The notes: generated by a model from the letters alone, not told the origin. A DNA stretch of 64,000 bases from a virus (IMGVR_UViG_3300007512_001547:73584-137583); one strand, 5' to 3'; counted from the stretch's first letter, positions 9,387-51,255 are shown. A program made the numbers and translations.

Positions 9387-10837
9387 TGACAGAAAATAAA
9401 AGGCAAGAACATTTAGGAGATTTTAATCGAAATTTTGCAGTGTTCTTGCCTGCTATTTCCAATTTTTTTAATACATTCATTTCCAGACAAAGAGTTACTA
9501 AAGGTACTCATATTCCAACAGAAAGAATTCCAAAAGGTTTAGACAGAGGAGTTGAAGGTTTAAACTTTATTAATCCAGACGAAGGTTACTTTACATATCC
9601 AACTGCATTATATTCAGCAGGACACGCTTGTTTAGATATGGATAAAGTTACAGACAGAGATTCTATGTGTGTTAATAGAGATCGAAAATTTAGTACAATA
9701 GTAGGCGACTCTGGTGGATATCAGATAGCAAAAGGTGTTATACAATTTGATTGGAAAGATTTTGAAGGTAACAAAGCAAATAAAGTTAGATCTAACATAT
9801 TAAATTGGTTAGAACTTATTGCAGACTGGTCAATGACATTAGATGTACCTACATGGGCGGCAGATGATTTAAACAGAGGCAAATCAGGATTAAACAGTTT
9901 CCAAGATTGTTTAGATGCTACAAAATTTAATAATGATTATTTCCAAAAAAATAGATTAGGACAAACAAAATTTTTAAATGTACTACAAGGTGATGATTGG
10001 GAGACTGGAACAATTTGGTATGATCAAATGAAAAAATACGAGTTTGAAGGTTGGGCATTTGGTGGTATTAATATGTGTGATATGGAAATACTACTTAAAA
10101 GACTAATTGTAATGAGAGATGAAAAGCAATTAGATGGCAAAGATTGGATTCACGTATTAGGAACATCACAATTAGATTGGGCTTGTTTCTTAACTGCAAT
10201 ACAAAGACAACTAAGAAAACATATCAATCCAAACGTTACAATAAGTTTTGATTCAGCATCTGCATTTTTATCAACTGCAAACGGTTTAGTTTATACACAA
10301 AATACATTTACTCCAAGTAGATTCTCATTTATTATGGATAAAGCACCAGATGACAAAAAAATGAAAGGTTCAGATATACCTTTTCCATTCCACAGTCAAA
10401 TTGGAGATAGATTAACAATGGGAGATGTTTGTTGGTATGGCGAAGGCGACCTAAATAAAAACAACAAAGAAGGTGCAACTTCTTGGGATAGTTTTAGTTA
10501 TTGTTTAATGATGTCTCACAATGTTTACAATCAAATCAAAGCAGTACAAGTAGCAAATGATTTAAACGATATTGAAAGTATAAAATATAAACCACAAGTA
10601 GGGCATTGGCGAAAAACAAAAGGATCAGATACAACCGATGAAATGAGTAATTTTGTTCCAAGAAATATATTATATTTCAATACACTTGTAGAAGAAGTAT
10701 TCACATCAGAGAATCCCATGGAAGTTATCAATAATGCTAGACCATTTTTAGCAGATATAAGAGGAACACGTTGGGCAAGACATACAGGTGGTGGTAAAGG
10801 TAAAAACAACTTTAGTTCATTATTTGAAGGAGGATAA
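9386..10837 (+). CDS. dpdA: TGT-fold guanine transglycosylase, DpdA-like (7-deazaguanine insertion into DNA)
   Basis: TGT motifs GDSGGYQ, TLDVP, VLQG, GWAFGG, HVLG, FDSAS; no CxCxxC Zn site; folE and queE in the same window. Confidence 0.8.
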   Translation: MTENKRQEHLGDFNRNFAVFLPAISNFFNTFISRQRVTKGTHIPTERIPKGLDRGVEGLNFINPDEGYFTYPTALYSAGHACLDMDKVTDRDSMCVNRDRKFSTIVGDSGGYQIAKGVIQFDWKDFEGNKANKVRSNILNWLELIADWSMTLDVPTWAADDLNRGKSGLNSFQDCLDATKFNNDYFQKNRLGQTKFLNVLQGDDWETGTIWYDQMKKYEFEGWAFGGINMCDMEILLKRLIVMRDEKQLDGKDWIHVLGTSQLDWACFLTAIQRQLRKHINPNVTISFDSASAFLSTANGLVYTQNTFTPSRFSFIMDKAPDDKKMKGSDIPFPFHSQIGDRLTMGDVCWYGEGDLNKNNKEGATSWDSFSYCLMMSHNVYNQIKAVQVANDLNDIESIKYKPQVGHWRKTKGSDTTDEMSNFVPRNILYFNTLVEEVFTSENPMEVINNARPFLADIRGTRWARHTGGGKGKNNFSSLFEGG

Positions 10838-12009
10838 TGCAAGATAATTTTTGCGTAATGCCGTTTGTACACGCATTTGTTACACCTAACATCATAAGTC
10901 CTTGTTGTGCCTATACTACACCACTCAAATTTAATTCAAAAAAACAATATTGGGCTTCTGAACAACTCAAAACAATTCAACAAAATATGTTGAGCAACAC
11001 ACGTGACGCAGGTTGCAGAGTTTGTTGGAAAAAAGAAGACAGAGGGTATAGCAGTTTAAGACAACATAGTAATCAAATTTACAAAGAACACATAGACTCA
11101 ATTAAAAGCAACAGTATTGATAAGCAACCATACTATCTTGATTTACGTTTAGGAAACTTATGTAACCTTAAATGTAGAATGTGTGTAAGTGAATGGAGCA
11201 GTCAAATTGCAGGAGAGATATTAGATAATCCTAATGAAGACTGGATAGACACACCTAAACAAAAAATAATTGAATTGGACGACGACTCATGGAAACTATT
11301 AGATAATTGGATTCCGTTTGTAAGACGTGTGTTCATGACTGGCGGAGAACCAACAATTATAAAACGTAACTTAGATTATATTGATAAAATTGTAGAATCA
11401 GGATATAGTAAAAATGTTGAACTTATTTTTACAACAAACGCCACAAATATAAATCAAAAATTTATAGAAATTAGTAAGAAATTTAAGAGTGTTAGTTTTA
11501 ATGTATCAATAGATGCAGTTGGTAATTTAGCAAATTATATTAGACATCCTAGTAATTGGAAAACTATTAAAAATAATTTACAAAACATTAATAAAAACGG
11601 TGTTGGAGTATCTTTTAACACAACTATACAATGGTTAAACATGACAAGATTAAATGAGATATTTGATTACATTGAAAATTGCAATATTGATTTTGGTGGT
11701 ATTTGGTTTCAATTGGTTACTGATCCATATTATCTTGATTCAATATATGCTCCAAATTTTATGAAAAAAAAATGTATTAACGATATAGAAGAATTTTTAC
11801 ATAGACCTTTTTTAAATAATCCAAAATTTAATAACATTCTTTTTGGTGAATTAAAGCAAAGTCTAATACAAACAAAGAACTTTTTGAGTAAAAACTTTAA
11901 CAATGTAAAATATACAGATGAGTTTTTAAAAAGGATGGAAATACTTGATAGATTAAGAAACCAAAATCTATTTGAGGTATTACCAGAATTAAAACAGATA
12001 GGAGAATAA
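10837..12009 (+). CDS. N-terminal twitch-domain radical SAM protein (copy 1)
   Basis: FCVMPF...PCC...CRVCW..E..SLR N-domain; core GNLCNLKCRMC; TGGEP. Confidence 0.93.
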   Translation: MQDNFCVMPFVHAFVTPNIISPCCAYTTPLKFNSKKQYWASEQLKTIQQNMLSNTRDAGCRVCWKKEDRGYSSLRQHSNQIYKEHIDSIKSNSIDKQPYYLDLRLGNLCNLKCRMCVSEWSSQIAGEILDNPNEDWIDTPKQKIIELDDDSWKLLDNWIPFVRRVFMTGGEPTIIKRNLDYIDKIVESGYSKNVELIFTTNATNINQKFIEISKKFKSVSFNVSIDAVGNLANYIRHPSNWKTIKNNLQNINKNGVGVSFNTTIQWLNMTRLNEIFDYIENCNIDFGGIWFQLVTDPYYLDSIYAPNFMKKKCINDIEEFLHRPFLNNPKFNNILFGELKQSLIQTKNFLSKNFNNVKYTDEFLKRMEILDRLRNQNLFEVLPELKQIGE

Positions 12010-12010
12010 A

Positions 12011-14282: not shown

Positions 14283-15437
14283 ATGTCACGAAAAATACTA
14301 GAAAAAAATTTCTGTGTATTACCTTGGACAGGTTTTGAACTAGAACCTGACGGTGTAGTAAAAAACTGCATTATCTCAAAAGAAACTATTGGCAACATAC
14401 ATCAAAATAGCATAGAAGATATTCTTCAATCAGAAAAGAATCTTGAGATTAAAGCTCAAATGCTAAACAAAGAATTCCCAAATAATTGTGCAGGTTGTTA
14501 TTTTCAAGAAAAAGATCGTGCAACAAATTTTGAAAGTATTAGTAGTAGACTATATTATGCAAAAGAATTAGGCCCACACATTGACAATAAATTACTAGAC
14601 AAAAAAGATAACTTTGATTTAAGTCATGTTGATCTCAGATGGAATAATAAATGCAATCAGGCCTGTGTTTATTGTTACCCAGAATACAGTAGTAAATGGG
14701 CACAAGAATTAAACATTAAACAAGAGTTTGAAAAAGGAAATGTTGAAAAAGTAAAACAATATGTCTTTAAAAATATTAAAAAATTAAAAAACATCTATCT
14801 TGCTGGTGGTGAACCTTTACTTATAAACGAAAATCGTGAATTTTTAAAATTATTATTAGAACAAAATCCAGATGTACATATAAGAGTAAACACAAATTTA
14901 AGTTCAACAAAAACTGGAGTATTTGAATTATTGTGTAAATTTAAAAATGTCCATTGGACGGTAAGTGTTGAATCCATGGATAAGGAATATGAATATATTA
15001 GATACCATAGTTCATGGAAAGACTTTATAAAAAATCTAAAATACATACAAACACTTAATCATAAAATTAGTTTTAATATGTTGTATTTCATTTTAAACTA
15101 CAAAAGCATATTTGATTGCATTGATTACTTTAAATCGATAGGATTTCACAATAATAGTTTTATAATAGGACCATTATATACACCATTGTTTTTAAATGTT
15201 AGACATTTACCAAAAAATATAAAAGAAGAAGTTATTACTATGTTTGAAAACAAAATTGCTGAACAACCAGGATTTTACCTACAAAATAGTTTGGAAAATT
15301 GCTTAAAGTATTTGACTGAAAATGGTTTTAATGCTAATATAGAACTAACAAGACAAAACATTAAAAAAATGGATTTAAGAAGAAAATTAGATAGCGAAAA
15401 AGTATTTCCAGAATTATACAAAGAGGTACTAAATTGA
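14283..15437 (+). CDS. N-terminal twitch-domain radical SAM protein (copy 2)
   Basis: FCVLPW...C...CAGCY; NKCNQACVYC; AGGEP; TAAATA 6 nt upstream. Confidence 0.93.
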   Translation: MSRKILEKNFCVLPWTGFELEPDGVVKNCIISKETIGNIHQNSIEDILQSEKNLEIKAQMLNKEFPNNCAGCYFQEKDRATNFESISSRLYYAKELGPHIDNKLLDKKDNFDLSHVDLRWNNKCNQACVYCYPEYSSKWAQELNIKQEFEKGNVEKVKQYVFKNIKKLKNIYLAGGEPLLINENREFLKLLLEQNPDVHIRVNTNLSSTKTGVFELLCKFKNVHWTVSVESMDKEYEYIRYHSSWKDFIKNLKYIQTLNHKISFNMLYFILNYKSIFDCIDYFKSIGFHNNSFIIGPLYTPLFLNVRHLPKNIKEEVITMFENKIAEQPGFYLQNSLENCLKYLTENGFNANIELTRQNIKKMDLRRKLDSEKVFPELYKEVLN

Positions 15438-16609: not shown

Positions 16610-17597
16610 CACACTTACAAGATCTGTATTAGTTACAGGTGGAGGTGGCTATGTGGGTTCTCACACTTGCAAATTATTATCTAAAAATGGATACGTTCCT
16701 GTAACTGTTGATAGACATTACAGAGAAGGACTAGTATCGTTTGGGCCAAATTATAATTTACATCTACCACAAGAAATTAATAGATTAGATGAAATTATTA
16801 AAAGACATAACATTACAAGTTGTATACATTTTCTGGCCAGCACATCAGTATCTGAATCTGTTACAAATCCCTCATTATATTATAAAAACAATCTTATAAA
16901 CACAATTACATTACTAGACAAATTAGTTTCTTTAGATATTAAATCATTTGTATATTCTTCTAGTGCGGCAGTTTATGGCAATCCAGGAATGAAACTATGC
17001 AAAGAAACAGATCAATGCAATCCAATTAGTTCTTATGGTGGAAGTAAATTAATGATAGAACAAGTTTTAAAAGATTATCATAGAGCATATGGTATATCAT
17101 CAGTAGGATTAAGGTATTTTAATGCCGCTGGAGCAGACCCAGAAGGAGACGTTGGAGAATTAAGAGAAAAAGAAACACATATAATACCATTAGCCATTAA
17201 AGCATCTAGGCAACTAAAAACATTTAAATTATTTGGTGCAAAATTTCCAACAGAAGATGGCACGTGTGTTAGAGATTATGTTCATGTTATGGACCTTGCA
17301 GATGCACACATTAAGGCTTTAAACTATGCTCATGAAAATAATTGTGCCGATGTTTTTAATTTAGGTTCTGGAGCACCTGTTTCTAATAGAGAATTATTAG
17401 ATGTTATACAAAAGCATACAGGTAAAATGGATATTAAATTTGAGCCAAGCAGAGCAGGGGATCCTGCATATCTTGTAGCAGATATAACAAAGGTAAAAGA
17501 AATATTAAATTGGGAACCAACACAAAGTTCAATTGATAATATAGTAGCAACTGCATTAAGATGGTATAATAAGATGCACAAGAAAGATATCCATTAA
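16566..17597 (+). CDS. galE: UDP-glucose 4-epimerase
   Basis: VTGGGGYVGSH, SSSAAVYG, YGGSK, LRYFNAAGA, RDYVHVMDLADAH. Confidence 0.92.
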   Translation: MENTTEHQFPSPSINTLTRSVLVTGGGGYVGSHTCKLLSKNGYVPVTVDRHYREGLVSFGPNYNLHLPQEINRLDEIIKRHNITSCIHFLASTSVSESVTNPSLYYKNNLINTITLLDKLVSLDIKSFVYSSSAAVYGNPGMKLCKETDQCNPISSYGGSKLMIEQVLKDYHRAYGISSVGLRYFNAAGADPEGDVGELREKETHIIPLAIKASRQLKTFKLFGAKFPTEDGTCVRDYVHVMDLADAHIKALNYAHENNCADVFNLGSGAPVSNRELLDVIQKHTGKMDIKFEPSRAGDPAYLVADITKVKEILNWEPTQSSIDNIVATALRWYNKMHKKDIH

Positions 17598-18733
17598 TGG
17601 ATCCAAAGAAAAAATACCATTTATTCAAAACAAATAAAAATTTTTGTGTTGTTCCGTGGACTAATTTTGAAATATACACAAATGGAGATGTTAGAACCTG
17701 TTCAATGGGTGGCGAAACTTTAGGCAATATTAACAATCAAGATATTGAAGATATTTTACAAAGTGATACTATTAAACGAATTAAATCAAATATGCTAGAA
17801 AATAAACCAGATAAAAACTGTGTATCATGCTATCACAGATCTATTGAAGATAAAAATTTTTCATATCTACGAGATCATTACAACAAATTACTGGTCAAAG
17901 CAGATGTTGATTATGAAAACATTGAAACTTTTGATATGCACTGTATTGATTTGCATTGGTCTAATATATGTAATTTACGTTGTATAATGTGTAATCCACA
18001 ACAAAGCAGTTTGATTGCAAAAGATGAAAAGGAAATTATTACTCCAGTTAATAAAAAAAGTGTAGAAAAAATAATACAAATGACTGTTAAAAATCAAGCA
18101 AAAATAAAAGAAATATACTTGAGTGGTGGAGAACCATTTTATATTCCTTACAATGTACAACTTTTAAAACAACTGGAAAATAAAGATGTACCATTAAGAA
18201 TTAATACTAATATGCAATGGAAAAAAACAAATCCTTTATTACAAGCATTGAAAAATTTTAATAATGTTCAACTCACAATGAGTGCTGATGCTGTAGGTGA
18301 TAAATTTAATTATATAAGAAACGGAGCGGATTGGGACTTGTTTTGTAATAATTTAGAATATATTAAAAACAATACAAATTTTTCAATCAGAGTAAACACA
18401 ATTTTTAGTATAATCAATGCTGATTGTATAGATAATTTAATTAATTATTTTTATAACCAAATGAATATAACTGACATGACTATTAATTTAGTATATGTTC
18501 CTAATGCAATGGATCCAAGAAACTACCCTGCAGGAAAAAAAACAAATATCATATCTAAATTGCAAAAAATTAAAAAAACTATATCTAACGAACACACAAA
18601 TTTACTTAATAATTTAGAAAATTGTATCATGCAAATAAGTTTGGAAAATATAAAAGATTATGTTCCTACGTTAGATCATGTTACAAAAAAACATAAAACA
18701 AATTGGAGACAAGTATTTGTAGATTTAGTATGA
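17597..18733 (+). CDS. N-terminal twitch-domain radical SAM protein (copy 3)
   Basis: FCVVPW...TC...CVSCY; NICNLRCIMC; SGGEP. Confidence 0.93.
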   Translation: MDPKKKYHLFKTNKNFCVVPWTNFEIYTNGDVRTCSMGGETLGNINNQDIEDILQSDTIKRIKSNMLENKPDKNCVSCYHRSIEDKNFSYLRDHYNKLLVKADVDYENIETFDMHCIDLHWSNICNLRCIMCNPQQSSLIAKDEKEIITPVNKKSVEKIIQMTVKNQAKIKEIYLSGGEPFYIPYNVQLLKQLENKDVPLRINTNMQWKKTNPLLQALKNFNNVQLTMSADAVGDKFNYIRNGADWDLFCNNLEYIKNNTNFSIRVNTIFSIINADCIDNLINYFYNQMNITDMTINLVYVPNAMDPRNYPAGKKTNIISKLQKIKKTISNEHTNLLNNLENCIMQISLENIKDYVPTLDHVTKKHKTNWRQVFVDLV

Positions 18734-32942: not shown

Positions 32943-32945
32943 TGT
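32927..32945 (+). repeat. 19-bp direct repeat flanking an inserted gene (copy 2 at 33640-33658)
   Basis: TATGGAGTCTAAATAATGT at both ends of ORF 32942-33655; extends to 25 bp with 2 mismatches. Confidence 0.92.
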
Positions 32946-39269: not shown

Positions 39270-40267
39270 GAATACTAATATTAGGGGGCTATGGATTTAT
39301 AGGTAGCCATATTTGTCAACAATTAAAATCAGAAGGACACACAATAGGAGTTGTAGATTGTTATCATCAATATTACACGTTTCCAGATTGGGAATACTAT
39401 CCTGTGCTTAATCAAAGAAAAGAAATTACAAAAACAGATAAAGAATACATAGGACAAATAGAAAACTTTCAATTTATGGAACAAACATTTGAAGATTTTA
39501 AGCCAGACAGAATTATTCATGTTGCTACTTTTCCAAATGCAAAAATGGTTAAAAGAAATGTGTTAGATGCAACTAATAATATGATTACTGCTACTGCATA
39601 CATATTAGATCTATGTGTCAAACATAAGGTACAAAAGATAGTTTATGCTTCAAGCAGTATGGTATATGGAGAGTTTAATAATCAAATACCAGACGAAGAA
39701 GTTATACCAGAACCAAATACATTGTACGGCTCATACAAAAAACAAGGTGAAACTATGTGCAAGATATGGAACAGAGAGTATGGCTTACCTTATATTATTA
39801 TGAGACCATCAGCACTTTATGGCACACGTGATACTATATGCAGAGTCATCAGCCAAATGTTAAAGAGTGTATTAACGACCGGTGATATGACTGTGCAGGG
39901 ACCTGATAATAAATTAGACTTCTCAAATGTACTGGATGTTGCCAAATACTTTTCATTAGCTACTACAAACGAAGTACTCAACGAAACATTTAATTGTACT
40001 CGTGGTAATGGTAGAAAAATTATAGACGCGGCAGAGATAATAAAATCAAAAATAGGTACTGGAAATATTATTACTAAACCACATGATTCATTCTATCCAA
40101 ACAGAGATACACTAAACAGTGATAAAGCAAAAACTATGTTTAATTTTAATCCAACAATAGATATAGAAGAAGGTATTCCAAAATATATTAATTGGTTTTT
40201 AGAACAACCTTTTTATTTTAATAATTTAAATATTAATCCAAAGTTTGCTCTGGGTACAAAGACTTAA
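39266..40267 (+). CDS. NAD-dependent epimerase/dehydratase (extended SDR)
   Basis: GGYGFIGSH, ASSSMVYG, YGSYK, RPSALYG. Confidence 0.92.
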   Translation: MRILILGGYGFIGSHICQQLKSEGHTIGVVDCYHQYYTFPDWEYYPVLNQRKEITKTDKEYIGQIENFQFMEQTFEDFKPDRIIHVATFPNAKMVKRNVLDATNNMITATAYILDLCVKHKVQKIVYASSSMVYGEFNNQIPDEEVIPEPNTLYGSYKKQGETMCKIWNREYGLPYIIMRPSALYGTRDTICRVISQMLKSVLTTGDMTVQGPDNKLDFSNVLDVAKYFSLATTNEVLNETFNCTRGNGRKIIDAAEIIKSKIGTGNIITKPHDSFYPNRDTLNSDKAKTMFNFNPTIDIEEGIPKYINWFLEQPFYFNNLNINPKFALGTKT

Positions 40268-41549
40268 ACTGCTCTTTAATCCATTCATAATCATAAGAAT
40301 ACATTAATTTATTGTAATCATTTTTGTAGTTGTTGTAATGCTTCTGACCATCAACTGCACCTTGATATATCCATTTAGCATTCTCACCATTACCCAACGT
40401 ACTCCATTTTTTAAGTCTGTATTTAGATTCCACTGTTGGTTTCATTTGTAATAATTTTATAACTTCCCTAAATGATGACCTATAAGCTAACAATGGTGTT
40501 TCGTTACAGTTACTAATTGCAGACAATATAGGTACTGAATGATGTGCTTGTGACAATGTAAAATCTAAACCTGGCTTTGTTGTTTTCATTACTAGATCTT
40601 TATTGTAAAGTATAACGCCTCCCCAACCATATGTTAGATCTATCACAGAATTATAACAATCAAATATGTAATGACAAGGGTTCCTTAACCTCTCTGGTTG
40701 AAAATCGAATTTAAAACTATCTACTATTTCGCTCTTTGGGAACACAGCAAAGAAATATTCTGTTTTACTCATCTGTGCCGCGGCCATGTAAGCAAGTGTC
40801 TGTCCTTGTACACCTTTGCTCCATTTAGCTCTAGGAAATTTTTCTTTTAATTTATTATATCGTTTTTCAGCACTAGGTTCGTCATACGATATAAAAACTA
40901 TGTCCATTGGATTTATATTATAGTCTAAGTCATAATGTACACTTCTTTCTACATCATAAAATTGTTTTAAATTATCTTGCTTTGGTACCAACATAATATC
41001 TTTTGTGTTACCCCAAGAATACAGTTTAACGTCTTCCCAGAAGCTAGGGTAAAAATTTGGCACTTTGTCAGGATCCAATTCTTTATTATACAGCCATGTA
41101 TAGTATTCTTCACTGTTATTGTATGCGGTAATTGGATCACTTAATTTAAATGCAATTTTTGGTATTATGTTTTGAAAAAGATTAGCATGAGCATGATAAT
41201 TAATGTCTTGAAAATCTCGCAAATATTGTATGTTGTACATCTGTTCTTTAAATTCTTTTGTAGGTATCAACATAATATTACCTTCTTTATTTGTTCCACC
41301 GTTAGGGTGCGTGTTGTACCATACGTGTATTTGATTTTTTTCGTGTTGTTCTGGAATGTAATCTATATCTATAGTTTTCATATTAATGAAACTAGAAAAA
41401 AACCAGAAGTACTCTGTCTTAATCTCCCCTACTACACTCTTAAGTATTTCAAAATAACTCTTAACAAAAGGTACTACCCTAGTGTTAGCAAAAGGACTTG
41501 GAAAAAATCCTGTATCTTTAAATCTGACCTGTACACTATCAAACGCCAT
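40233..41549 (-). CDS. Glycosyltransferase-like (GT-A) protein with an N-terminal extension; paralog of 51242-52141
   Basis: DIVFISYDEP.A, GVQG...AY.AAA..S.TEYFF, YGWGGVILY, YRSSFRE; DxD replaced by FPKSE; start 41549 after GGAG. Confidence 0.7.
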   Translation of the reverse strand: MAFDSVQVRFKDTGFFPSPFANTRVVPFVKSYFEILKSVVGEIKTEYFWFFSSFINMKTIDIDYIPEQHEKNQIHVWYNTHPNGGTNKEGNIMLIPTKEFKEQMYNIQYLRDFQDINYHAHANLFQNIIPKIAFKLSDPITAYNNSEEYYTWLYNKELDPDKVPNFYPSFWEDVKLYSWGNTKDIMLVPKQDNLKQFYDVERSVHYDLDYNINPMDIVFISYDEPSAEKRYNKLKEKFPRAKWSKGVQGQTLAYMAAAQMSKTEYFFAVFPKSEIVDSFKFDFQPERLRNPCHYIFDCYNSVIDLTYGWGGVILYNKDLVMKTTKPGLDFTLSQAHHSVPILSAISNCNETPLLAYRSSFREVIKLLQMKPTVESKYRLKKWSTLGNGENAKWIYQGAVDGQKHYNNYKNDYNKLMYSYDYEWIKEQFKSLYPEQTLD

Positions 41550-41573
41550 AAAAGTCTCCACCATTAAGTTTTA

Positions 41574-43037
41574 TCATAGTACTTTTACTCCATATTTGGC
41601 TGTCCAGTCTTTACCATCTTTGGTGTCATTTACCATTGGCATACCCTTAATGTTCAAACTGGTGTTTAACAATATTGGACAACCTGTTTTCTTTTTCCAT
41701 GCTTTAAGTAACTCATAAAACCCTTCGTTATCGCTTTTAGCGACGGTTTGCACCCTAGATGTATTATCATAGTGTATTATGGCAGGACAGTCTTTACCAT
41801 GCGTGTACGTTGCTGTATATTGCATATAAGGGGTGTTTAAAACACCTTTAGGTAGCTTAAAATACTCGTTTACATCCTCTTCTAAAATGGCAGGAGCAAA
41901 CGGTCTAAACTTTTGTCTTCTTTTAATTTGATTTACCATATCCTTAATTTCCAATCCTCTTGGGTCAGCTAAAAGAGATCTATTACCAAGAGCTCTTGGT
42001 CCAAACTCTGCTCTACCATTTGCAACTCCTACCATTTTATTTTCTGTTAATTCTTTTATAATTTTATCTACTGGATATTCTCCTTCTATGTTATATCCTA
42101 AAAATGGACTCTTCCAATCTAAGTGTCTTTGTTCCGATGCCGCGATACATCCTAACGAACTTCCTGCATCTCCTGGATTAGGTATAATCCAAATGTTATC
42201 AAACAATCCCATATTTGCTAATGCAGTGTTTGCCGCACAATTAAGAGCAACTCCGCCTGCATAAACTAAATTTCTGCTACCATACTTAGATGCTCTATGC
42301 CATAAATCTGCAAGACATTCTTCAAGAACTGATTGTATACTTGCGGCTATATCCATAACATCTGCTTCTGGATGCCAATCACTTAACCCTCTATGTAAAT
42401 TCTTTTTTAATTTAAAAGGTGATTGTATCACAAAGTCTTCATAGATATCATCTTTATATCTTGGTTTTCCATAAGCCGCCATTCCCATTAAAATATATTC
42501 TTCTTCTGCAGGTTTTAATCCACAACGTTGTGTAAATGCAGAATATAATATGCCCAAACTATGTGGATACTTTATAGTTTCTTTTCGTTCTATCCAAACT
42601 TTGTTAGCAGTAGATATTGATACTGTATCCCATTCACCTATTGCATCCACTGTTAAAATAGTTGCTTCTCGAAATGGTGAAGTAAAATATCCTGCCGCGG
42701 CATGACTATCATGATGTTTTACATATTCATCTATTTTAATTTTAAAATTATCTAAATGCCATTGTGGCATTTCTGTATAACTTAAAGCATCACTGTATTG
42801 TCCTGCATAAAATTGTCGTGTTTTCTTTAATAAAGGTTTTTCGTAATAAACAACTTTGTCAAAAGGACCATATGTCATTGCTTCATTTACTATTCGCCAA
42901 TTTAAATAAAAATCATTTTTAACTTTTGAATAACGTTCTGCATGAGCGGCCCATAGCACTTCGCCTATACCACTGCTGTAATCAACAACTGCCATTGCGG
43001 CATCGTGATTCATACAGTTTATACCTAATATTCTCAT
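41574..43037 (-). CDS. Carbamoyltransferase (NodU/CmcH/TobZ family)
   Basis: HDAAMA, HHDSHAAAGYF, DAIGE, SLGILYS, GGVALNC, GRAEFGPRALGNRSLLADPR, RPFAP, SRVQTV, LLNTSLN. Confidence 0.96.
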   Translation of the reverse strand: MRILGINCMNHDAAMAVVDYSSGIGEVLWAAHAERYSKVKNDFYLNWRIVNEAMTYGPFDKVVYYEKPLLKKTRQFYAGQYSDALSYTEMPQWHLDNFKIKIDEYVKHHDSHAAAGYFTSPFREATILTVDAIGEWDTVSISTANKVWIERKETIKYPHSLGILYSAFTQRCGLKPAEEEYILMGMAAYGKPRYKDDIYEDFVIQSPFKLKKNLHRGLSDWHPEADVMDIAASIQSVLEECLADLWHRASKYGSRNLVYAGGVALNCAANTALANMGLFDNIWIIPNPGDAGSSLGCIAASEQRHLDWKSPFLGYNIEGEYPVDKIIKELTENKMVGVANGRAEFGPRALGNRSLLADPRGLEIKDMVNQIKRRQKFRPFAPAILEEDVNEYFKLPKGVLNTPYMQYTATYTHGKDCPAIIHYDNTSRVQTVAKSDNEGFYELLKAWKKKTGCPILLNTSLNIKGMPMVNDTKDGKDWTAKYGVKVL

Positions 43038-43879: not shown

Positions 43880-43984
43880 TTATTTGTATATAAACGGGTC
43901 TTTTTTCTTTAGTTCTTTTAATCTTTTACGATAAGCAAGTTCTTGCTTAATCTTATTGATTATTTTTTTAATCCATCCGAACAT
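43880..43984 (-). CDS. 34-aa basic microprotein (not in ORF track)
   Basis: MFGWIKKIINKIKQELAYRKRLKEL...KDPFIYK; SD GGAGG 5 nt upstream; fills the gap in the operon. Confidence 0.7.
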   Translation of the reverse strand: MFGWIKKIINKIKQELAYRKRLKELKKKDPFIYK

Positions 43985-44789
43985 TTTTTCCTCCTATTAT
44001 TTCATTAAACTTAGGTTGCATTAATTTTACAGCATCTCTGTGTGCTTTGTCTAGCGGGTGTGTTGTACCACGTTCATATTCATTCAATAATGCCCATTGA
44101 TTAAATCCCATACAACGATCACCAAAGAAAAACCATCTGGTTAAATCTATTTCTTTATGTAATGCTAACATAAATGGATCTTGATCTTTGTGGTTATCAA
44201 AGTCTCTGTAAAACAAACTATTATCAGCAAGTGTAAACATATATGGAATTTTCTTTTTTTCTAAAATATTCTGTAACCAAATAATAGATTTCCAGCTCAA
44301 ATATGTTTCATGATATTCATTAGCGGCGTGTTTATAAATTGCTTCAGCAAATGGTTTAACTCCTGTATTAATTAATAACTCTTCTCTTCTTTTCCATTGT
44401 TCTTGTTGTGCTTCGGATCCTACTAACGCAGTATGTCGCTCTTCACTTGCTATTTTAGTGTCCCAGGGAGATATTGTTGCCCAACGAGTTTTTTCTAAAT
44501 TTCTATGTCGTGGCATCGCCCAATCATAACGAGATAAAAAACTCCACATTACAACAACACAACCAATATCTGTTGTATTTGCTACTGCATTAAAAACTCT
44601 TCTTGCAATTCCTGGATTTCCTGTACCAGGTCTTGCTGTACAAATATAATTGTCTGGTTGACAATAATTTTCTTCTTGACTTAAAACATATGCCCAACTT
44701 TGCTTAGATGGTGTTTTACCTTCATTATCATCAGACAATTCGTGTCCAAATGTAAAACTACAACCTCCTGCTATAAATTTTTTATTCAT
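43968..44789 (-). CDS. SGNH/GDSL hydrolase-like protein (possible sugar O-acyl esterase or transferase)
   Basis: Block I GGCSFTFG, block II GTGN, C-terminal THP...H. Confidence 0.8.
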   Translation of the reverse strand: MNKKFIAGGCSFTFGHELSDDNEGKTPSKQSWAYVLSQEENYCQPDNYICTARPGTGNPGIARRVFNAVANTTDIGCVVVMWSFLSRYDWAMPRHRNLEKTRWATISPWDTKIASEERHTALVGSEAQQEQWKRREELLINTGVKPFAEAIYKHAANEYHETYLSWKSIIWLQNILEKKKIPYMFTLADNSLFYRDFDNHKDQDPFMLALHKEIDLTRWFFFGDRCMGFNQWALLNEYERGTTHPLDKAHRDAVKLMQPKFNEIIGGKNVRMD

Positions 44790-45948
44790 ATATTTGTAAT
44801 ACCTTATTTAAAAGTGGAAAAACATCTCCAAAATCTTCTTTTCTATACTTGTCTGTTTGTAATATCCTTGCTTTTCTTTGCTCTCTAATTTCTTCTGAAT
44901 CTCTATGTGCTGAATTCATAAATCTTAATGTGGGTTGAAAATCTGTAAGCATTGAGTATCTACTATTAACAATATTTTTAACCTGTTTAGGTAATGTTTG
45001 TATGTTAAAATAATCTGGATCAAAACAGGTATTAACATAAAAGAATTTAGGTTGATATTGTGCTACCCATAATGAAATTTTTGCTAAACTAAAAATATTA
45101 AAAATACTAATTGTTGTACAAATTTGAAACTCCATATTATGAGTTTGATATGTTTTAAACTCTACAAGATTATGATTAACTTCTCTCCAGTTAGCAGGGT
45201 GTCTTTGATATTGAAACTGCTCTCCTACATCATCAATACTAAATGCTATTTCAACTCTTTTAAAATATCTCCACAGGTCAAATATTTCTCTAGGCGGCAA
45301 TTGTGTTCCATTTGTGTTGTAGTGTATATCTATATTTTTTGCATAACCTTTTTCAACACAATGCATTAATATTTTAAAATGATCTCGTATCATAAAAGGT
45401 TCACCACCTGTAAACTCAAAATATTCTGCATCTGCTAAACATTCTTGTATGTCATCAAAAAATGTAGGATGTTTTTTTGGCCAACCACCTTCTTTTAGAT
45501 TTTTTCTTGCGACTGGATTTTCTCCATAATCTAATTCTTCCTGTGCCCACTTGCTGGAACTCCAACTGCCACATATTCTACATTTTAAATTACATACGTT
45601 GCCCAACTTAAAATCTATAAACTTTAGTGTTGGCTCGCTATTAGGGGTCCAGTCTTTTAAACTGTTACGCATTTTATAAATTGAATTCATACGTTTTGAT
45701 GTTTTTCCAACACTTTCTTCTTGCCAACAACTTTCACAACTTAAAGGACGTTCTCCATTTTTAAATTTTTGTCTTAATTTTTTCATATATTCAGAACTTT
45801 GTATTGTTTTTAAATCAGTTTCATATACTTTAACATTGGGTATATTTCCTTTATATAAACAACAAGGCGAAGCACCTCCATTTACATCTACTTCTAAATG
45901 TGTCCACGGTAATGGACATATATTTGATTTTATATACTTTTCCACCAT
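44782..45948 (-). CDS. N-terminal twitch-domain radical SAM protein (copy 6)
   Basis: ICPLPW...PCC...CESCW..E..SKR; GNVCNLKCRIC; TGGEP. Confidence 0.93.
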   Translation of the reverse strand: MVEKYIKSNICPLPWTHLEVDVNGGASPCCLYKGNIPNVKVYETDLKTIQSSEYMKKLRQKFKNGERPLSCESCWQEESVGKTSKRMNSIYKMRNSLKDWTPNSEPTLKFIDFKLGNVCNLKCRICGSWSSSKWAQEELDYGENPVARKNLKEGGWPKKHPTFFDDIQECLADAEYFEFTGGEPFMIRDHFKILMHCVEKGYAKNIDIHYNTNGTQLPPREIFDLWRYFKRVEIAFSIDDVGEQFQYQRHPANWREVNHNLVEFKTYQTHNMEFQICTTISIFNIFSLAKISLWVAQYQPKFFYVNTCFDPDYFNIQTLPKQVKNIVNSRYSMLTDFQPTLRFMNSAHRDSEEIREQRKARILQTDKYRKEDFGDVFPLLNKVLQIYE

Positions 45949-47276
45949 TCCAATACCTCTGGTTCTTTTATTAATATTTTTGTAATATCTGTTCCACGAA
46001 TTTTATCTAAACGCTCGCATTCTTCTTTTCCTGATTTCCAACCTTTCATACAAGTTTCTTTATCATAACGTTGTTCATTAGTAGGATGATTTTTCAAATC
46101 GTCCAATCCTTCTAAAAATGCCATGTTAAACACTGTAGGTTTTTCGTTTTTAACTTTGTCTTTAACTTTGTCTACCATTTTGTGTAATAATTTTTGAGGC
46201 ATAAACAAAGGACTCATGAATACATCAGGACTAAAAGTAAATACTTTTTTACATAATAACGGTATTTTCAAATCTTTTTGTAATTCATACATATTTTCTA
46301 AGTCAAATAATCCAGGAAGTGTTACAGTAAGATCTAATTGTAATTGTCTTGGATGCCTTACGAATTTTTTTGCATATTGCATATTAGAATACCATTCGTT
46401 ATATTTTAAACCTGTTCTAATATATTCACCAATTTCGCCAGTTCCGTCTATTGATGCATTTATTTGCCAATCTTGAAATTTTGAAAGAATATCATCAAAT
46501 AAATTTAATTTAAAAAATTTAATTCTACTCATATTAGAATTATACCTAACATAAACTTGATTTGCATATCCTAATTCTACTACACGTTGCATGGCAATCC
46601 AGTGTATTTTCCACATTAACGGTTCTCCACCGCACCAATAAAACTCTCTAATAGTTTTCTCTTCAATTGCTTTTGTAAATTCTTTAACCATTGTTTGATC
46701 ATGGAACTTTTGCAATATTGCTTGTACATCTTTCCTACCCCAAATTCTATATTTTGTGTATAGTTCAGGTTTGCGATGTTTTTTATTTTCCGCCTCCCAA
46801 CTACTACTCAACATATCACCACACATTCTACAACTAAAATTACAAAGATTAGAAAATCTATAATCCCAACTAACAACTTTCATTGTTGTTACACCGGTGT
46901 CATCTGTTGACTCAAATGCTTTATCTATATCGTTTCCGTAAAATCTGTTGAAGTGCTGTCTATACACCTGTGCATTAAGCAGTTTATGATTACAAGTAGC
47001 ACATTGTGGTATTTCTTCTCCGGCCATTAATTTAAGCCTAACTGATTTCATATATTCAGAATTCCAATGCTCATCTAAACTTTTTAAATTAATTTTACCT
47101 GAACTTATATTACTCTTATAATCTTTTGGTAGTGTGTCAATATATTGTTTAAAATTATTGGAATCTTCACGACTTGCACAACACAATCGCCTTTCCATTT
47201 GAGGTGACATATAAGTATGCACCCATGGCGCCATACAGAATGTTTTATTACCTTCGTTTGGTTTAATTTTTTTCAT
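45930..47276 (-). CDS. N-terminal twitch-domain radical SAM protein (copy 7)
   Basis: Likely start MKKIKP at 47276; FCMAPW...LCC...CATC; NLCNFSCRMC; CGGEP. Confidence 0.93.
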   Translation of the reverse strand: MKKIKPNEGNKTFCMAPWVHTYMSPQMERRLCCASREDSNNFKQYIDTLPKDYKSNISSGKINLKSLDEHWNSEYMKSVRLKLMAGEEIPQCATCNHKLLNAQVYRQHFNRFYGNDIDKAFESTDDTGVTTMKVVSWDYRFSNLCNFSCRMCGDMLSSSWEAENKKHRKPELYTKYRIWGRKDVQAILQKFHDQTMVKEFTKAIEEKTIREFYWCGGEPLMWKIHWIAMQRVVELGYANQVYVRYNSNMSRIKFFKLNLFDDILSKFQDWQINASIDGTGEIGEYIRTGLKYNEWYSNMQYAKKFVRHPRQLQLDLTVTLPGLFDLENMYELQKDLKIPLLCKKVFTFSPDVFMSPLFMPQKLLHKMVDKVKDKVKNEKPTVFNMAFLEGLDDLKNHPTNEQRYDKETCMKGWKSGKEECERLDKIRGTDITKILIKEPEVLEWWKSI

Positions 47277-48555
47277 ATTTGTCAAATAATTCTTTCCATT
47301 CTGGAAACGTATCAGTAAACGTTTCGTCTCTAATTTTATCATATTTCTTTGTTTCTCTGAAAAACAATTCAAGTTTATCTGTTTTATCTCTTCTAAAAAG
47401 ATAATCCAAAGCACTTTCATATCCTTTAGTTGCACGAGTAAGATGATCTTGTGCTTTTAACCATTCTATATGTTTTTCGTATTTTTCTTTTATTTGTTGC
47501 TTAAATTCTTCTGGCAAAAGATCCATACGTTGCCATAACGGAAACTGCAATAAATTAAAATTAAAATCTTGTGGTTTAATCAATCCTTGCTCTACCCAAT
47601 TCTTATGAAAATCTACAACGTGTAATGCATTTACTAATCCTACTGTTGAACTAATATAAAAATCAACTTGTGGACAAACTACTAACATACGTTTTCTATT
47701 TGCTACAATATCTTTCCATACAGTTCCTTTACGCATTAATTCTGCTCTTGGTCCTTCTGCATCTAAACTTGCTCCTATAGATACTGAATCAAATTTATTC
47801 CATAATTCAAATATATCTGTACCTTTAAATTTGGACTTACTAAAATTTGTATTATAAATTAACCTAACATGATACATTTTACGTTTGTCTAATTCTTTTA
47901 AAATTCTTAGATGTTCTTCCATTATAATTGGTTCACCACCAGCAAAATAAAACTGTTCCACATGATCAAATTGTTCTAATAATTGATCCCATATATCATT
48001 AGAAGTCCTACCAACTTTCATAATTTTTGCATGGGGTGGTGGACTACCTGTTAATTTTTTGTGATCTTCGTACCAATTAGAACTAAACCATGTACCACAA
48101 CTTCTACAAGCCATGTTACACAAATTACTAAAACGTATATCCCAATATTTTATTACAAAGTCTGCTGAACCATCTGACTGTGTAGTATTAACCATATCAA
48201 TATTATGTCCAAAATGTTTGTTTGAACTTAAACGTAAACTAAAGAATCCAGATTTTTCTTGATCATAACACTTAAAACATTCACGTGATGGTTTGTTTGC
48301 TAACATATTCAAACGCATTTGTTTCATTTTATCACCATTCCAAACTTCAGCCATTGATTGTTTATTAAGATCACCAACTGGCAATTTGTCTAAAGCAAAA
48401 CAACAAGAATATGCTCTGCCATCTGGAAATGCGTGAAGGTGCATCCATGGCAACATACAAAAATTGTCACTTTCTATTAATAACTCCTTTTGTTTAGGAG
48501 TCATATCTTTTATTTTTAATTTCTCAGGCTCTTTTGCTCCGTACTCATATGCCAC
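47263..48555 (-). CDS. N-terminal twitch-domain radical SAM protein (copy 8)
   Basis: GTG start; FCMLPW...SCC...CFKCY..E..SLR; NLCNMACRSC; AGGEP. Confidence 0.93.
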   Translation of the reverse strand: MAYEYGAKEPEKLKIKDMTPKQKELLIESDNFCMLPWMHLHAFPDGRAYSCCFALDKLPVGDLNKQSMAEVWNGDKMKQMRLNMLANKPSRECFKCYDQEKSGFFSLRLSSNKHFGHNIDMVNTTQSDGSADFVIKYWDIRFSNLCNMACRSCGTWFSSNWYEDHKKLTGSPPPHAKIMKVGRTSNDIWDQLLEQFDHVEQFYFAGGEPIIMEEHLRILKELDKRKMYHVRLIYNTNFSKSKFKGTDIFELWNKFDSVSIGASLDAEGPRAELMRKGTVWKDIVANRKRMLVVCPQVDFYISSTVGLVNALHVVDFHKNWVEQGLIKPQDFNFNLLQFPLWQRMDLLPEEFKQQIKEKYEKHIEWLKAQDHLTRATKGYESALDYLFRRDKTDKLELFFRETKKYDKIRDETFTDTFPEWKELFDKYEKN

Positions 48556-49888
48556 GATACCATTCTCCTATTATTGGGAAAGTTTTTTCAAAATCTTTTC
48601 CTCTTCGTTTGTCATATTGACTATAAAATAACTTAAAGTCTTTTTGTAATTTTTCTCTTGCGGCCGCTCCAGCGTGTGGTGTTTTAACAACATCTAAATA
48701 ATCAATTAATCTTTGTGTATGATTAATTTCCATTTCTTCTAAATGTTGTTGATTATTTTTTAAAAATTTTTCAATATCCCCTTTAAACTTATTACGTAAA
48801 TCATCTGGCAATACCAAAGGTGATTGAAAACTTGGAAACCTTAAAATATTAAGTGTATAATTTATTGTTGGTCCGTAAATCTTACTTGCATTTTTTAACC
48901 ATACAATTTTTTCTAAAAATTCAGCCAGTGATTCTAAACACAATGCATTGATTGTACACATATTGTGAATTTCTGCTGGTACTTTATCAACCATCATGTG
49001 TAATACTTGACTATACCAATCTCCATAATTTAATCCGTCTCTAATATATTCTGCTTGTCTAAATGTTGCTTCATTACTAGTGTACAAGTGAAATCTATCA
49101 AAGTTTTTTAATTTCTTTTTAAAACGTTCTATAATATCTTGTTTTGCACCTAAATTAGAATTAATTGCAATACGCATATGAGGATTCATTTTGTGTCCTT
49201 GTGTTTCTATCCAATCTAACAGTCTCCATAAATTAGGCGACATCATAGGTTCACCGCCTGTTATTCTTAATTCATCTAAACTTTTATGCAAATCTGTTTC
49301 CCACCAAGTGTAAAATGCTTCAACATAAGGATTAGTTTCATCTTTTTTATAAGGTTCTGCTGATTCATGACTGTGAGTAAAATGATTTCTTCCGTCTGTT
49401 GTCATATCTGTGTATGGACCTTTTTGTTTAATGTCTCTTGCCCATGTTGTGCTAAATGCAGGATTGCAATAAGAACAAGCAAAATTACAAGTTCTGTCAA
49501 ATGCTATTTCTAATGTTTTTAAATTCCAATCAATTTCGTGACTCTCAGTAAATGCTTCTTCTAAATGACCACTGTCAAATATTTTTGATTTGTATACCCT
49601 ATCTGATATAGCATCTTTGCCAATGTCTTCTATTTTCCAACAATATTCACAACCTGCAGGTCTTTCACCACACTGCATTTGTTTACGTTGCTCCTTCTTT
49701 TGCCATGTATTGTGTATTGCAGATGGATTTGTTTTTATTTCTTCTAAATCTATTTTGTGTGGTAATGGGTGATGACAACTTGTAGTCATACCACTGCCTA
49801 ACCATATAGTTGCATTGAACCATTTAGCACCACAAAAACTTGCTGACTTTGTATCTAATATTTGTTTTTTATATTCTAAATCTTTCAT
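48545..49888 (-). CDS. N-terminal twitch-domain radical SAM protein (copy 9)
   Basis: FCGAKW...SCHH...CEYCW..E..SDR; TCNFACSYC; TGGEP. Confidence 0.93.
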   Translation of the reverse strand: MKDLEYKKQILDTKSASFCGAKWFNATIWLGSGMTTSCHHPLPHKIDLEEIKTNPSAIHNTWQKKEQRKQMQCGERPAGCEYCWKIEDIGKDAISDRVYKSKIFDSGHLEEAFTESHEIDWNLKTLEIAFDRTCNFACSYCNPAFSTTWARDIKQKGPYTDMTTDGRNHFTHSHESAEPYKKDETNPYVEAFYTWWETDLHKSLDELRITGGEPMMSPNLWRLLDWIETQGHKMNPHMRIAINSNLGAKQDIIERFKKKLKNFDRFHLYTSNEATFRQAEYIRDGLNYGDWYSQVLHMMVDKVPAEIHNMCTINALCLESLAEFLEKIVWLKNASKIYGPTINYTLNILRFPSFQSPLVLPDDLRNKFKGDIEKFLKNNQQHLEEMEINHTQRLIDYLDVVKTPHAGAAAREKLQKDFKLFYSQYDKRRGKDFEKTFPIIGEWYRGI

Positions 49889-51255
49889 GCGTTTTTACAC
49901 TCCTGCCAAAATTCTGACATTTCTGGGAATACTGTTTCAAAGTTTGTTAAGCGTCTACGATCATGTTCGTTAAAAAATGCGTAAAAGTTCTTTTTAGTTT
50001 GCGTACTAGTGTCTGCATTTTTACGCCAATAAGCTAAATTGCGTAACATTTTTTGAATCTCAAAGTCTTTGAATATGTGTAATCCTTTATCTTCTCCAGA
50101 ATTTTCTCTCATATATTCTATGTTGGCTTCATGTATTGCTTGATATGCCTCAGGCAATAATGTTATCTGTTGCCATGCAGGCTGTCTAAGCAATGGTATA
50201 TCAAACCATACTCGTTGATACGTTTTACTATGTCGTTTTCGTAATTCTAAAATACCTTCTAATAACTTATCCAAACTTGTAACACTAAGATTATTGTATG
50301 TGATTATAAAAGTAACTGAATTACGTACTGGTATACGATCCAAAAATTCATCTACATTATCCCACATACGATTAAATTCTAATCCATTTCTAATATATTC
50401 TGCTTGTTTACCCCATGCATCAACTGAAACAAATTGCATGAAATGTTCAACTTTCTCCTCAATACAGATTTTCTTAACCATATCAAAATATTTGTTTTTT
50501 AATTTGTTATTAGGTGGACACATATTACTGGTTACGTTTAAGTGTAAGTCTTGTTTTGGATTATTAATAACGTATTCAAATACTTTATATGTGTTATTGT
50601 CCATCATAGGTTCACCACCTGTCATACGAAAATGTTTTAAATTTTTATATAATGTAGGCCACCACTTCCAAAAAGCAGTAACATAAGGATTATCTTCTTT
50701 ATGTGGTATTGGACGTTTTCTTCCTTGAAAGTGTTCAGGTGCATTGTGGGGAGGAGATGTTGGATATTGGCCATATACAGCAATCTCCTTCCCCCACGTT
50801 GTCGAGAATTGTGGTGAGCAATAAGAACACTTAAAATTACAAGCATTATTAAAGTTTACTTCCACATATCTCGGTGTCCAACGTTCGTCCATTGGATTTT
50901 GTTTAATTGCTGTAAAGTCTTGCATGGCCCATGGTTCACCAGAACGATAATGTCTATCTGACATTTCGCCTGTGTCTTCCATTTTCCAACAATATGAACA
51001 ACCCTCAGGCCGTTCTCCTTTAAGCATTTGTTGTCTTTGATTTAATTTTTCTGCTGTATTATGTAGTGCCGCAGGATTATCTTCTAATTTTGTTGCATCT
51101 ATTTCATGTAAAGGTGGATGATAGCAACTGTTTGTTAATCCAGTAGGCAAGTGTAATGAAACTTGATTCCATTTTGCCAAACACATAGTTGGTGAAACAT
51201 TATCAAGTAAACTTTTAGCCAACTCTGCATCTGCTTTATAATTACTTGTACTCAC
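49885..51255 (-). CDS. N-terminal twitch-domain radical SAM protein (copy 10)
   Basis: GTG start; MCLAKW...SCYH...CSYCW..E..SDR; ACNFKCSYC; TGGEP. Confidence 0.93.
   Translation of the reverse strand: MSTSNYKADAELAKSLLDNVSPTMCLAKWNQVSLHLPTGLTNSCYHPPLHEIDATKLEDNPAALHNTAEKLNQRQQMLKGERPEGCSYCWKMEDTGEMSDRHYRSGEPWAMQDFTAIKQNPMDERWTPRYVEVNFNNACNFKCSYCSPQFSTTWGKEIAVYGQYPTSPPHNAPEHFQGRKRPIPHKEDNPYVTAFWKWWPTLYKNLKHFRMTGGEPMMDNNTYKVFEYVINNPKQDLHLNVTSNMCPPNNKLKNKYFDMVKKICIEEKVEHFMQFVSVDAWGKQAEYIRNGLEFNRMWDNVDEFLDRIPVRNSVTFIITYNNLSVTSLDKLLEGILELRKRHSKTYQRVWFDIPLLRQPAWQQITLLPEAYQAIHEANIEYMRENSGEDKGLHIFKDFEIQKMLRNLAYWRKNADTSTQTKKNFYAFFNEHDRRRLTNFETVFPEMSEFWQECKNA

Follow-up and report, generated by a model that had tools for sequence, protein, structure and literature searches.

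Ten radical SAM paralogs of the N_Twi_rSAM family in a marine phage contig, and a gene context that points to possible sugar tailoring

This study describes ten paralogous radical S-adenosylmethionine (SAM) enzymes, here named R1 to R10, encoded in a 64,000-nucleotide stretch of viral DNA (IMGVR_UViG_3300007512_001547:73584-137583). This whole 64-kb stretch, hereafter the window, is the terminal part of a 137.6-kb IMG/VR virus contig with a CheckV completeness of 29%. Each of the ten proteins aligns over its full length with the NCBIfam family NF033640 (N_Twi_rSAM), with scores of 208-403 bits where the curated cut-off is 170, and a six-frame search of the whole contig with this model returned 11 matches above the cut-off, the eleventh copy (R0) lying 3.3 kb upstream of the window at contig positions 69198-70289. 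The ten genes (eleven on the contig) are predicted to encode functional members of a catalogued family. We consider the chances about even that these paralogs tailor sugars or a glycan by radical chemistry, the basis for this reading being gene context alone.

A permuted radical SAM family in diverged copies

Exactly ten open reading frames (ORFs) of the window contain CxxxCxxC, one motif each, and they coincide in position with the ten paralogs listed in the initial annotation of this DNA, which their CxxxCxxC and GGEP motifs and their family scores bear out (Table 1). The NF033640 model has 398 positions, and the matches span positions 1-20 to 392-398. The next-best models (viperin, MoaA, NirJ, and peptide maturases) reached only 15-48 bits, far under their own cut-offs, which are 265-720 bits for the equivalog models. 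The family, for which the initial annotation knew of no function, is in fact a curated NCBIfam subfamily, yet an uncharacterised one, and it is large, since the family profile matched 8,473 clusters at 50% identity with E<1e-30.

The motif set proposed as common to the ten copies held in its core but not in every part. A second Cys or CC, followed by CxxC, was found in every copy, and each copy has one GGEP and, on the N-terminal side of the core, four or five Cys. The first Cys lies in CxxPW/F in eight copies, in CxAKW in R9 and R10, and in CEFID, which lacks PW, in R5, while SxR is present in every copy except R3 (YLR) and R7 (YR). The start of R7 is most likely the ATG at 47276, giving a 14-nt overlap with the end of R8, rather than the GTG of the longest ORF at 47435. 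The possibility of degenerate or pseudogene paralogs was rejected, as the ORFs are intact, the motifs are kept, and dN/dS is below 0.5.

With Pfam, Radical_SAM was located mid-protein in all ten copies and SPASM at the N-terminus (residues 11-97) in five. When the family profile (106 members) was compared with PDB sequences, its positions 7-77 aligned with residues 184-257 of BtrN (E 7e-7), which constitute the C-terminal twitch domain of that enzyme. These two lines of evidence argue that the permuted domain order is real, and that the auxiliary-cluster (twitch) domain has truly been relocated ahead of the radical SAM core, as first proposed. The four or five Cys preceding the core leave room for one auxiliary cluster, as in a twitch domain, and not for two, as in SPASM.

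R8, the best match to the family model, was modelled with AlphaFold2 on a 106-sequence alignment (mean pLDDT 95.4, pTM 0.92). The model comprises a small N-terminal domain of a beta-hairpin and helices (~30-125), a beta/alpha core (~135-340), and a four-helix C-terminal extension. None of the solved structures is a member of the N_Twi_rSAM family, and the matches found by Foldseek and VIA-align concern the generic radical SAM core only, solved radical SAM enzymes reaching Z 8-13 against the beta/alpha core. The top four were anSMEcpe (Z 12.8), BlsE (12.8), CteB (12.7), and SkfB (12.6), which cover 221-243 residues at 12-17% identity; SuiB (11.7), viperin (11.5, core only), GDGT-MAS (11.3), and MoaA (11.2) followed. 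The enzymes with these tied scores have substrates as different as peptides, nucleotides, lipids, and a nucleoside sugar acid, and the fold therefore does not tell the substrate.

BtrN (2-deoxy-scyllo-inosamine dehydrogenase of butirosin biosynthesis; PDB 4M7S/4M7T) is the archetype of twitch enzymes with one auxiliary cluster and acts on a carbon of a sugar-like substrate, and its twitch domain is homologous to the one described here. However, the twitch follows the barrel in BtrN and precedes it in N_Twi_rSAM, whose proteins here are 110-190 residues longer and carry the four-helix C-terminal extension, and whole-chain BtrN scored only Z 5.5 over 114 residues of R8. Judged over the whole fold, BtrN is therefore not the closest enzyme; the four best matches tie at Z 12.6-12.8, and peptides are the substrates of three of them. 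The reversed order and the low score make it less likely that these proteins are BtrN homologs, but not that they work like BtrN.

The eleven copies share only 16-36% pairwise identity, with R2 and R3 at 36%. Five related phage contigs (G001-G005; 172-338 kb, one 97% complete) each contain 7-10 copies above the cut-off. In a tree of 69 sequences, R6, R7, R8, R9, and R10 each fell in a clade with one ortholog from each of these five contigs (SH-aLRT 95-100; 100 for R7). Orthologs of R2, R3, and R4 were restricted to the closest contigs, that of R2 occurring in G004 and G005 (SH-aLRT 100), and R0, R1, and R5 sat on long or poorly resolved branches (1.51 for R5). The separate subtype that had been recognised in R9 and R10 formed a clade at SH-aLRT 100, which includes gp349 of the Ralstonia phage RsoM2USA, and bacterial sequences fell inside the R6 and R8 clades. 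Compared with the G004 orthologs, dN/dS was 0.08-0.19 in the tandem five (R9 0.08, R6 0.19) and 0.16-0.47 in R2-R4. The low identity, the conserved orthogroups, and dN/dS of 0.08-0.47 indicate that the duplications are ancient and that each copy has been kept by selection. The initial description of the set as diversified is thus supported, R6-R10 being 1:1 orthologs across all five contigs.

The tandem order is R10-R9-R8-R6-R7 in the more distant contigs G001-G003 and R10-R9-R8-R7-R6 in the window, and the tandem array of G003 comprises seven copies rather than five. Copy number is 10-11 per phage, compared with 0-4 in the sampled bacteria. The same contig encodes an A-type Fe-S carrier upstream of the window (contig positions 39800-40105; PF01521, E 1e-14), and no flavodoxin was found on it.

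Glycan genes around the tandem copies and their relatives

The genes R10 to R6 belong to a chain of overlapping or abutting stops and starts on the minus strand, from 54280 to 43968. In the order of transcription, tail-fibre-like genes are followed by genes for proteins of 106, 254, 266, 98, and 299 aa and then by R10, R9, R8, R7, and R6; downstream of R6 are genes for 273-, 95-, and 184-aa proteins, the carbamoyltransferase gene, and a 443-aa gene (40233). The tandem five are physically coupled to putative GT-A-fold proteins, a carbamoyltransferase, and enzymes for nucleoside diphosphate (NDP)-sugars, beside tail-fibre genes, and the coupling of the operon genes is probably also translational.

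The 299-aa protein had no Pfam or PHROG match. Its AlphaFold2 model (pLDDT 91.3) gave top Foldseek matches that were all GT-A glycosyltransferases (RmlT, WrtF, TarS, TarP, K4CP), at a probability of 0.95-1.0 but with TM-scores of only 0.31-0.36 and identities of 6-13%. For the 266/254-aa pair, language-model neighbours in the ESM Atlas carry PF03407/PF01501 at 0.95-0.96, which provides a lead only. A count of four GT-A genes was rejected, as fold and hhalign tie only the 299-aa protein and the C-terminal half of the 443-aa protein to GT-A, and the pair at 52406/53199 was not tied to the 299-aa family by hhalign. The 273-aa protein had no Pfam, PHROG, or PDB match. PHROG tail-fibre families matched 55308-56957.

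The tblastn search with R6, R8, and R10 detected the family in three isolate-phage records, namely Ralstonia RsoM2USA, Vibrio K566, and Vibrio K567, and in one uncultured marine viral fragment obtained by single-cell amplification; all these homologs are annotated as hypothetical or generic radical SAM proteins. Gene for gene, the window block 54335-49885 and the GT-A paralog follow the order of gp355-gp348 in RsoM2USA: the fibre-like genes 54335/55308 correspond to gp355, 53960 to gp354, 53199 to gp353, and 52406 to gp352. The 299-aa putative GT-A-fold protein is 39% identical to gp350, the 443-aa GT-A paralog 35% identical to gp348, and both R9 and R10 are 36% identical to gp349 (R10 E 7e-85). 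Mass-spectrometric proteomics of RsoM2USA virions placed ORF356, ORF359 (tail sheath), and ORF361 among the structural proteins (PMC8504454), and these adjoin the gp348-gp355 block. This synteny beside virion genes indicates that the GT-A/radical SAM module is conserved as an add-on to the tail genes of both soil and marine phages.

In sampled bacterial species genomes the family is rare (<1%) and, where present, usually occurs as 2-4 adjacent copies. Matches above the cut-off were found in 3/301 species-representative Bacteroidota and in 3/401 Pseudomonadota, one of the latter being a metagenome-assembled genome (MAG) with a mis-binned phage contig; 14 control genomes had no match above the NF033640 cut-off. 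Six loci from two phyla were inspected (four Bacteroidota genomes with 112 neighbouring ORFs, and two Pseudomonadota loci). Among the 112 Bacteroidota neighbours, we counted 23 PhyH dioxygenases, 7 GT2, 4 methyltransferases, 4 GDSL-like proteins, 3 Asp/Asn beta-hydroxylases, 3 B12-binding radical SAM proteins, 2 carbamoyltransferases, and 2 WelO5. The carbamoyltransferases beside the Bacteroidota N_Twi_rSAM genes are 33% identical to that of the phage, and one Bacteroidota locus additionally has GT4, an SDR epimerase, and PMT_2. The two Pseudomonadota loci have a WbsX glycosyltransferase, RmlC, RmlD, TylF, and GT2. Glycan genes are the common denominator of these bacterial neighbourhoods.

In addition, the Bacteroidota N_Twi_rSAM genes lie beside runs of up to ~10 consecutive genes for proteins of ~300 aa, and these loci look like an uncharacterised, very oxygenase-rich tailoring cluster of Fe(II)/2-oxoglutarate PhyH-family enzymes. 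The family also includes apparent fusions of 770-1466 aa with two or three full N_Twi_rSAM units per chain, some of them with TPR or Sel1 repeats. Such Sel1/TPR repeats or tandem self-duplications were all that the longer family members carried, so they gave no functional hint.

Table 1. Features of the window, in window coordinates
Feature	Position	Strand	Details
R1	10837..12009	+	390 aa; NF033640 335.8 bits; CVMPF, CC, CRVCWKKE, SLR, CNLKCRMC, GGEP
R2	14283..15437	+	384 aa; NF033640 268 bits; Pfam SPASM at residues 11-73
R3	17597..18733	+	378 aa; NF033640 252.6 bits; sister of R2
R4	21626..22804	+	392 aa; NF033640 274.8 bits
R5	30608..31765	+	385 aa; NF033640 208 bits; most divergent copy
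R6	44782..45948	-	388 aa; tandem; NF033640 359 bits
R7	45930..47276	-	448 aa; tandem; NF033640 314 bits
R8	47263..48555	-	430 aa; tandem; NF033640 403 bits, best family-model match
R9	48545..49888	-	447 aa; tandem; NF033640 294.6 bits; CxAKW/SCxH subtype
R10	49885..51255	-	456 aa; tandem; NF033640 334 bits; CxAKW/SCxH subtype
Redoxin gene	13734-14264		directly upstream of R2
Weak GT-B-like gene	15434-16609	+	residues 187-346 match three GT-B families below threshold (E 0.01-0.03)
SDR NAD-epimerase/dehydratase	16566-17597	+	Epimerase PF01370, E 1e-45
FolE (GTP cyclohydrolase I)	19597-20307		E 4e-48; before R4
IMPDH/GMP-reductase-family gene	20541-21608		E 1e-67; before R4
Weak QueE-like gene	26927-27814		PDB QueE E 5e-5, N-terminal 50 residues only
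NDP-aminosugar gene set	36695..40267	+	convergent on operon; DegT E 6e-103, GFO/IDH/MocA 2e-9, PIG-L 7e-17, SDR epimerase/dehydratase 3e-37 (Pfam)
443-aa protein	40233..41564	-	C-terminal half (212-441) paralogous to 299-aa protein; hhalign probability 100, E 1e-76
Carbamoyltransferase (NodU/CmcH type)	41574..43037	-	Carbam_trans_C E 9e-53, Carbam_trans_N E 5e-42
273-aa protein	43968..44789	-	coupled to R6; N-terminal GGCSFTFG motif, SGNH-like by motif only
299-aa protein, putative GT-A fold	51242..52141	-	coupled to R10; VDGDN (DxD-like) motif after beta-strand
266- and 254-aa paralog pair	52406..53963	-	mutual hhalign probability 99.8; candidate GT8/Nucleotid_trans-like
Ser/Thr-rich (20-28%) tail-fibre-like genes	54335..62176	-	upstream of operon, co-oriented; composition, common N-termini

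Candidate chemistry and substrates

Concerning the mechanism, the CxxxCxxC of the radical SAM partial TIM barrel should be the site of a [4Fe-4S] cluster, and the four conserved Cys of the BtrN-type N-terminal twitch should hold one auxiliary [4Fe-4S] cluster. Each paralog most likely cleaves SAM reductively to give the 5'-deoxyadenosyl radical, which would take a hydrogen from a specific carbon of an NDP-sugar or of a residue in a growing glycan. Resolution of this radical via the twitch cluster may then result in oxidation, epimerisation, or dehydration. Oxidation is the BtrN-like outcome, and epimerisation or dehydration is the chemistry of other sugar-directed radical SAM enzymes. The five tandem enzymes, the putative GT-A-fold transferases, the carbamoyltransferase, and the NDP-aminosugar pathway could together yield a heavily edited glycan, a single product in whose making each orthogroup would have its own step. 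The placement of the operon behind the tail-fibre genes suggests that this glycan decorates the virion (its Ser/Thr-rich fibres) or the host envelope.

The sugar reading is favoured by the facts that R2 and R3 flank an SDR epimerase gene and that the tandem five stand with putative GT-A-fold proteins and a carbamoyltransferase, facing the NDP-aminosugar set. Because the substrate is not readable from the fold, radical tailoring of sugars is read from gene context alone. The initial proposal of such tailoring is thus supported in part, by the sugar-biosynthesis context of both the phage and the bacterial homologs, the proteins themselves being silent on the substrate.

Several observations weigh against this reading. 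In addition to the lack of substrate information in the proteins, no glycan or acceptor has been observed. The fold neighbours of R8 tie between peptide modifiers (anSMEcpe, CteB, SkfB, SuiB), BlsE, which decarboxylates a nucleoside sugar, and enzymes that use nucleotides (viperin, MoaA), and the whole-chain score of BtrN is low. Just one GT-A assignment, that of the 299-aa protein, comes from the fold, the others being leads. Further, the neighbours of R1, R4, and R5 are genes of replication and nucleotide metabolism and not sugar genes, and the PhyH-dominated Bacteroidota clusters (23/112), with their Asp/Asn beta-hydroxylases and B12-radical SAM proteins, equally fit peptide or lipid tailoring.

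One alternative is protein or peptide modification, in favour of which these Bacteroidota loci can be compared with clusters of the proteusin type for ribosomally synthesised and post-translationally modified peptides (RiPPs). The enzymes would then act on the Ser/Thr-rich tail fibres or on a small co-encoded peptide, by Cys/Ser oxidation, cross-linking, or epimerisation as in anSME, sactisynthases, radical epimerases, and cyclophane synthases. The peptide modifiers among the top structural neighbours of the core, the position of the operon downstream of tail-fibre genes, and the fusion of some family members to Sel1 or TPR protein-binding repeats are all consistent with this. In anSMEcpe (4K36), BlsE (7VOB), CteB (5WGG), and SkfB (6EFN) the auxiliary domains stand at the C-terminus, unlike in N_Twi_rSAM; the number of auxiliary clusters is two in anSME and CteB; an N-terminal domain for peptide recognition, which N_Twi_rSAM lacks, is found in CteB and SkfB; and the substrate of BlsE is a nucleoside-linked glucuronic acid. 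However, the ten proteins have four or five non-core Cys, all N-terminal, which sets their one-cluster twitch apart from the two-cluster SPASM of most peptide maturases, and no RiPP recognition element or other leader-binding domain was detected in them by Pfam. No precursor-like repeated small ORF was noticed, although no systematic search was made, and whether in the phage, RsoM2USA, or either bacterial phylum, the family is constantly accompanied by glycosyltransferases and NDP-sugar enzymes. Based on this evidence, we regard peptide modification as unlikely.

The dispersed copies raise a different alternative. The initial annotation had described five tandem genes and five singletons among core genes; the tandem five remain as described, but R2 and R3 belong, with the GT-B-like gene and the SDR epimerase gene between them, to a coupled four-gene unit with overlapping stops and starts. 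Elsewhere, the start of R1 overlaps the stop of a 483-aa gene (9386-10837), and R1, R4, and R5 are found among genes for PolB, a methyltransferase, FolE, the IMPDH/GMP-reductase-family protein, the weak QueE-like protein, a 5'-3' exonuclease, and MoxR/VWA proteins. The FolE, IMPDH/GMP-reductase-family, and QueE-like genes hint at what may be a partial 7-deazaguanine pathway. Some copies, chiefly R1, R4, and R5, would accordingly act on nucleotides or DNA bases, in 7-deazaguanine-type or other DNA hypermodification, or would produce modified nucleotides in the manner of viperin. Viperin and MoaA recur as second-tier matches by sequence and fold, and the Arg residues that are invariant (R108, R275) or near-invariant (R81, R409) in the family alignment would suit phosphate binding. 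Against this, the prokaryotic viperin model NF038283 (Viperin_w_prok) gave only 18-38 bits with a cut-off of 180, and a reading of 9386-10837 beside R1 as DpdA was rejected, since searches of Pfam, PHROG, and the PDB gave nothing in its support. Moreover, the bacterial homologs lie in glycan clusters and not in DNA-modification clusters, and no nucleotide genes are near the conserved core set R6-R10. Action on nucleotides or bases, even by these few copies, is therefore held to be quite improbable.

Directly after R5 (31839-34890) are genes for a MoxR-type AAA ATPase, a 237-aa protein, and a DUF2201 metallopeptidase-like/VWA protein, forming a MoxR-VWA chaperone-like pair.

The combination of DegT, GFO/MocA, PIG-L deacetylase, carbamoyltransferase, and twitch radical SAM enzymes recalls the enzyme sets of butirosin/neomycin-type pathways, which are well established. 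It could be taken to mean that the product of the island is a small molecule secreted in free form, for example an aminoglycoside-like pseudo-oligosaccharide, instead of a surface glycan. This is very improbable in our judgement, as the genes scanned included no 2-deoxy-scyllo-inosose synthase, no resistance gene, and no exporter, the block is syntenic with the tail module of RsoM2USA, and the bacterial contexts resemble O-antigen/capsule loci (WbsX, RmlC/D, GT2, GT4).

Returning to sugar tailoring, a bolder form of it can be put forward, although we think it rather doubtful. Marine jumbo phages and RsoM2USA would, by means of the GT-A/N-terminal-twitch radical SAM module, put a radically edited glycan on their own tail fibres. 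This would be a new virion modification that sets host range, and the N_Twi_rSAM family would in that case hold several new radical reactions on sugars, each of the five conserved orthogroups having its own.

Phage lineage, known systems and meaning

The window has a GC content of ~31%, and its gene strand flips from plus to minus near 40.2 kb. The family-B DNA polymerase is nearest to those of two jumbo phages of 469-490 kb, Phosso of Sinorhizobium (50.6%) and Atu_ph07 of Agrobacterium (45.5%), and next to those of ~350-kb jumbo phages of Escherichia and Vibrio (~42%). The contig is therefore a piece of a T4-superfamily-like myophage of very large size. Marine assemblies (Tara, ENA, JGI) abound in orthologs of its genes with 76-94% identity, R8 alone having thousands of orthologs at 76-91% identity in marine metagenomes, and megablast of the tandem operon against 50,697 phage records gave no match.

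Within the tail-fibre-like region, 57657-59252 encodes a protein of 531 aa with 22% Gly, GGxGG runs, and a weak Gly_rich_2 match, followed by a 155-aa gene. ATAAATA boxes, which resemble a T4-type late promoter, were found 12-14 nt before five start codons (window 219, 662, and 3235 on the plus strand; 60662 and 62919 on the minus strand); two of them precede tail-fibre-like genes (14 nt), and none stands before a radical SAM gene.

The MAGs TMED41, TMED56, and MED606 contain short contigs of the same phage lineage, with 4-8 N_Twi_rSAM matches above the cut-off per MAG. They are labelled Betaproteobacteria, Verrucomicrobia, and Rickettsiales, and a scan of genome contigs with one protein mostly returned such contigs. 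Their presence is almost certainly due to mis-binning, and since this mis-binning extends across three phyla, the MAG labels yield no host inference.

The following data were found in the literature. Nishimura et al. (2017) described a 183-kb marine viral genome with 12 radical SAM genes and an A-type Fe-S carrier (PMC5332604), and Zaragoza-Solas et al. (2020) reported that in pelagimyophages the "host recognition cluster", which holds the tail fibres, contains "radical SAM cassettes" together with glycosyltransferases (PMC7029224). Neither paper gives a family, the permuted twitch architecture, or a reaction for these radical SAM genes (PMC5332604, PMC7029224). The window's contig has the A-type Fe-S carrier and the many radical SAM genes in common with the genome of Nishimura et al., a likeness that refers to the published description and not to NF033640 membership, and its polymerase is nearest to Atu_ph07/Phosso-type jumbo phages (470-490 kb) and not to pelagimyophages. 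In the titles and abstracts searched, no experimental study of the N_Twi_rSAM family or its function was found. What is already known, then, is that the family is catalogued and that many radical SAM genes and glycosyltransferase-linked cassettes were noted, without analysis, in marine T4-like viral genomes. The present analysis adds the ortholog-level conservation of five enzymes, a partner assigned by its fold as a putative GT-A enzyme, tallies of bacterial neighbourhoods, and synteny with a cultured phage. The ten copies and the eleventh share the N-terminal Cys pattern, CxxxCxxC, and GGEP of NF033640; they differ from the family at large in their high copy number and in their fixed association with tail-fibre and putative GT-A genes.

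To our knowledge, sugar-editing radical SAM enzymes are few and prized (BtrN, DesII, AprD4, NeoN, BlsE). In the current study, a family of more than 8,000 clusters with no assigned reaction was found concentrated ten-fold in a very common ocean phage lineage. Through the synteny with RsoM2USA (gp348-gp355) and the copies in Vibrio K566/K567, the question of its function becomes testable at the bench. If the sugar reading is true, these enzymes would represent new oxygen-independent carbohydrate chemistry, and the phage-made glycan would be likely to affect host recognition or superinfection.

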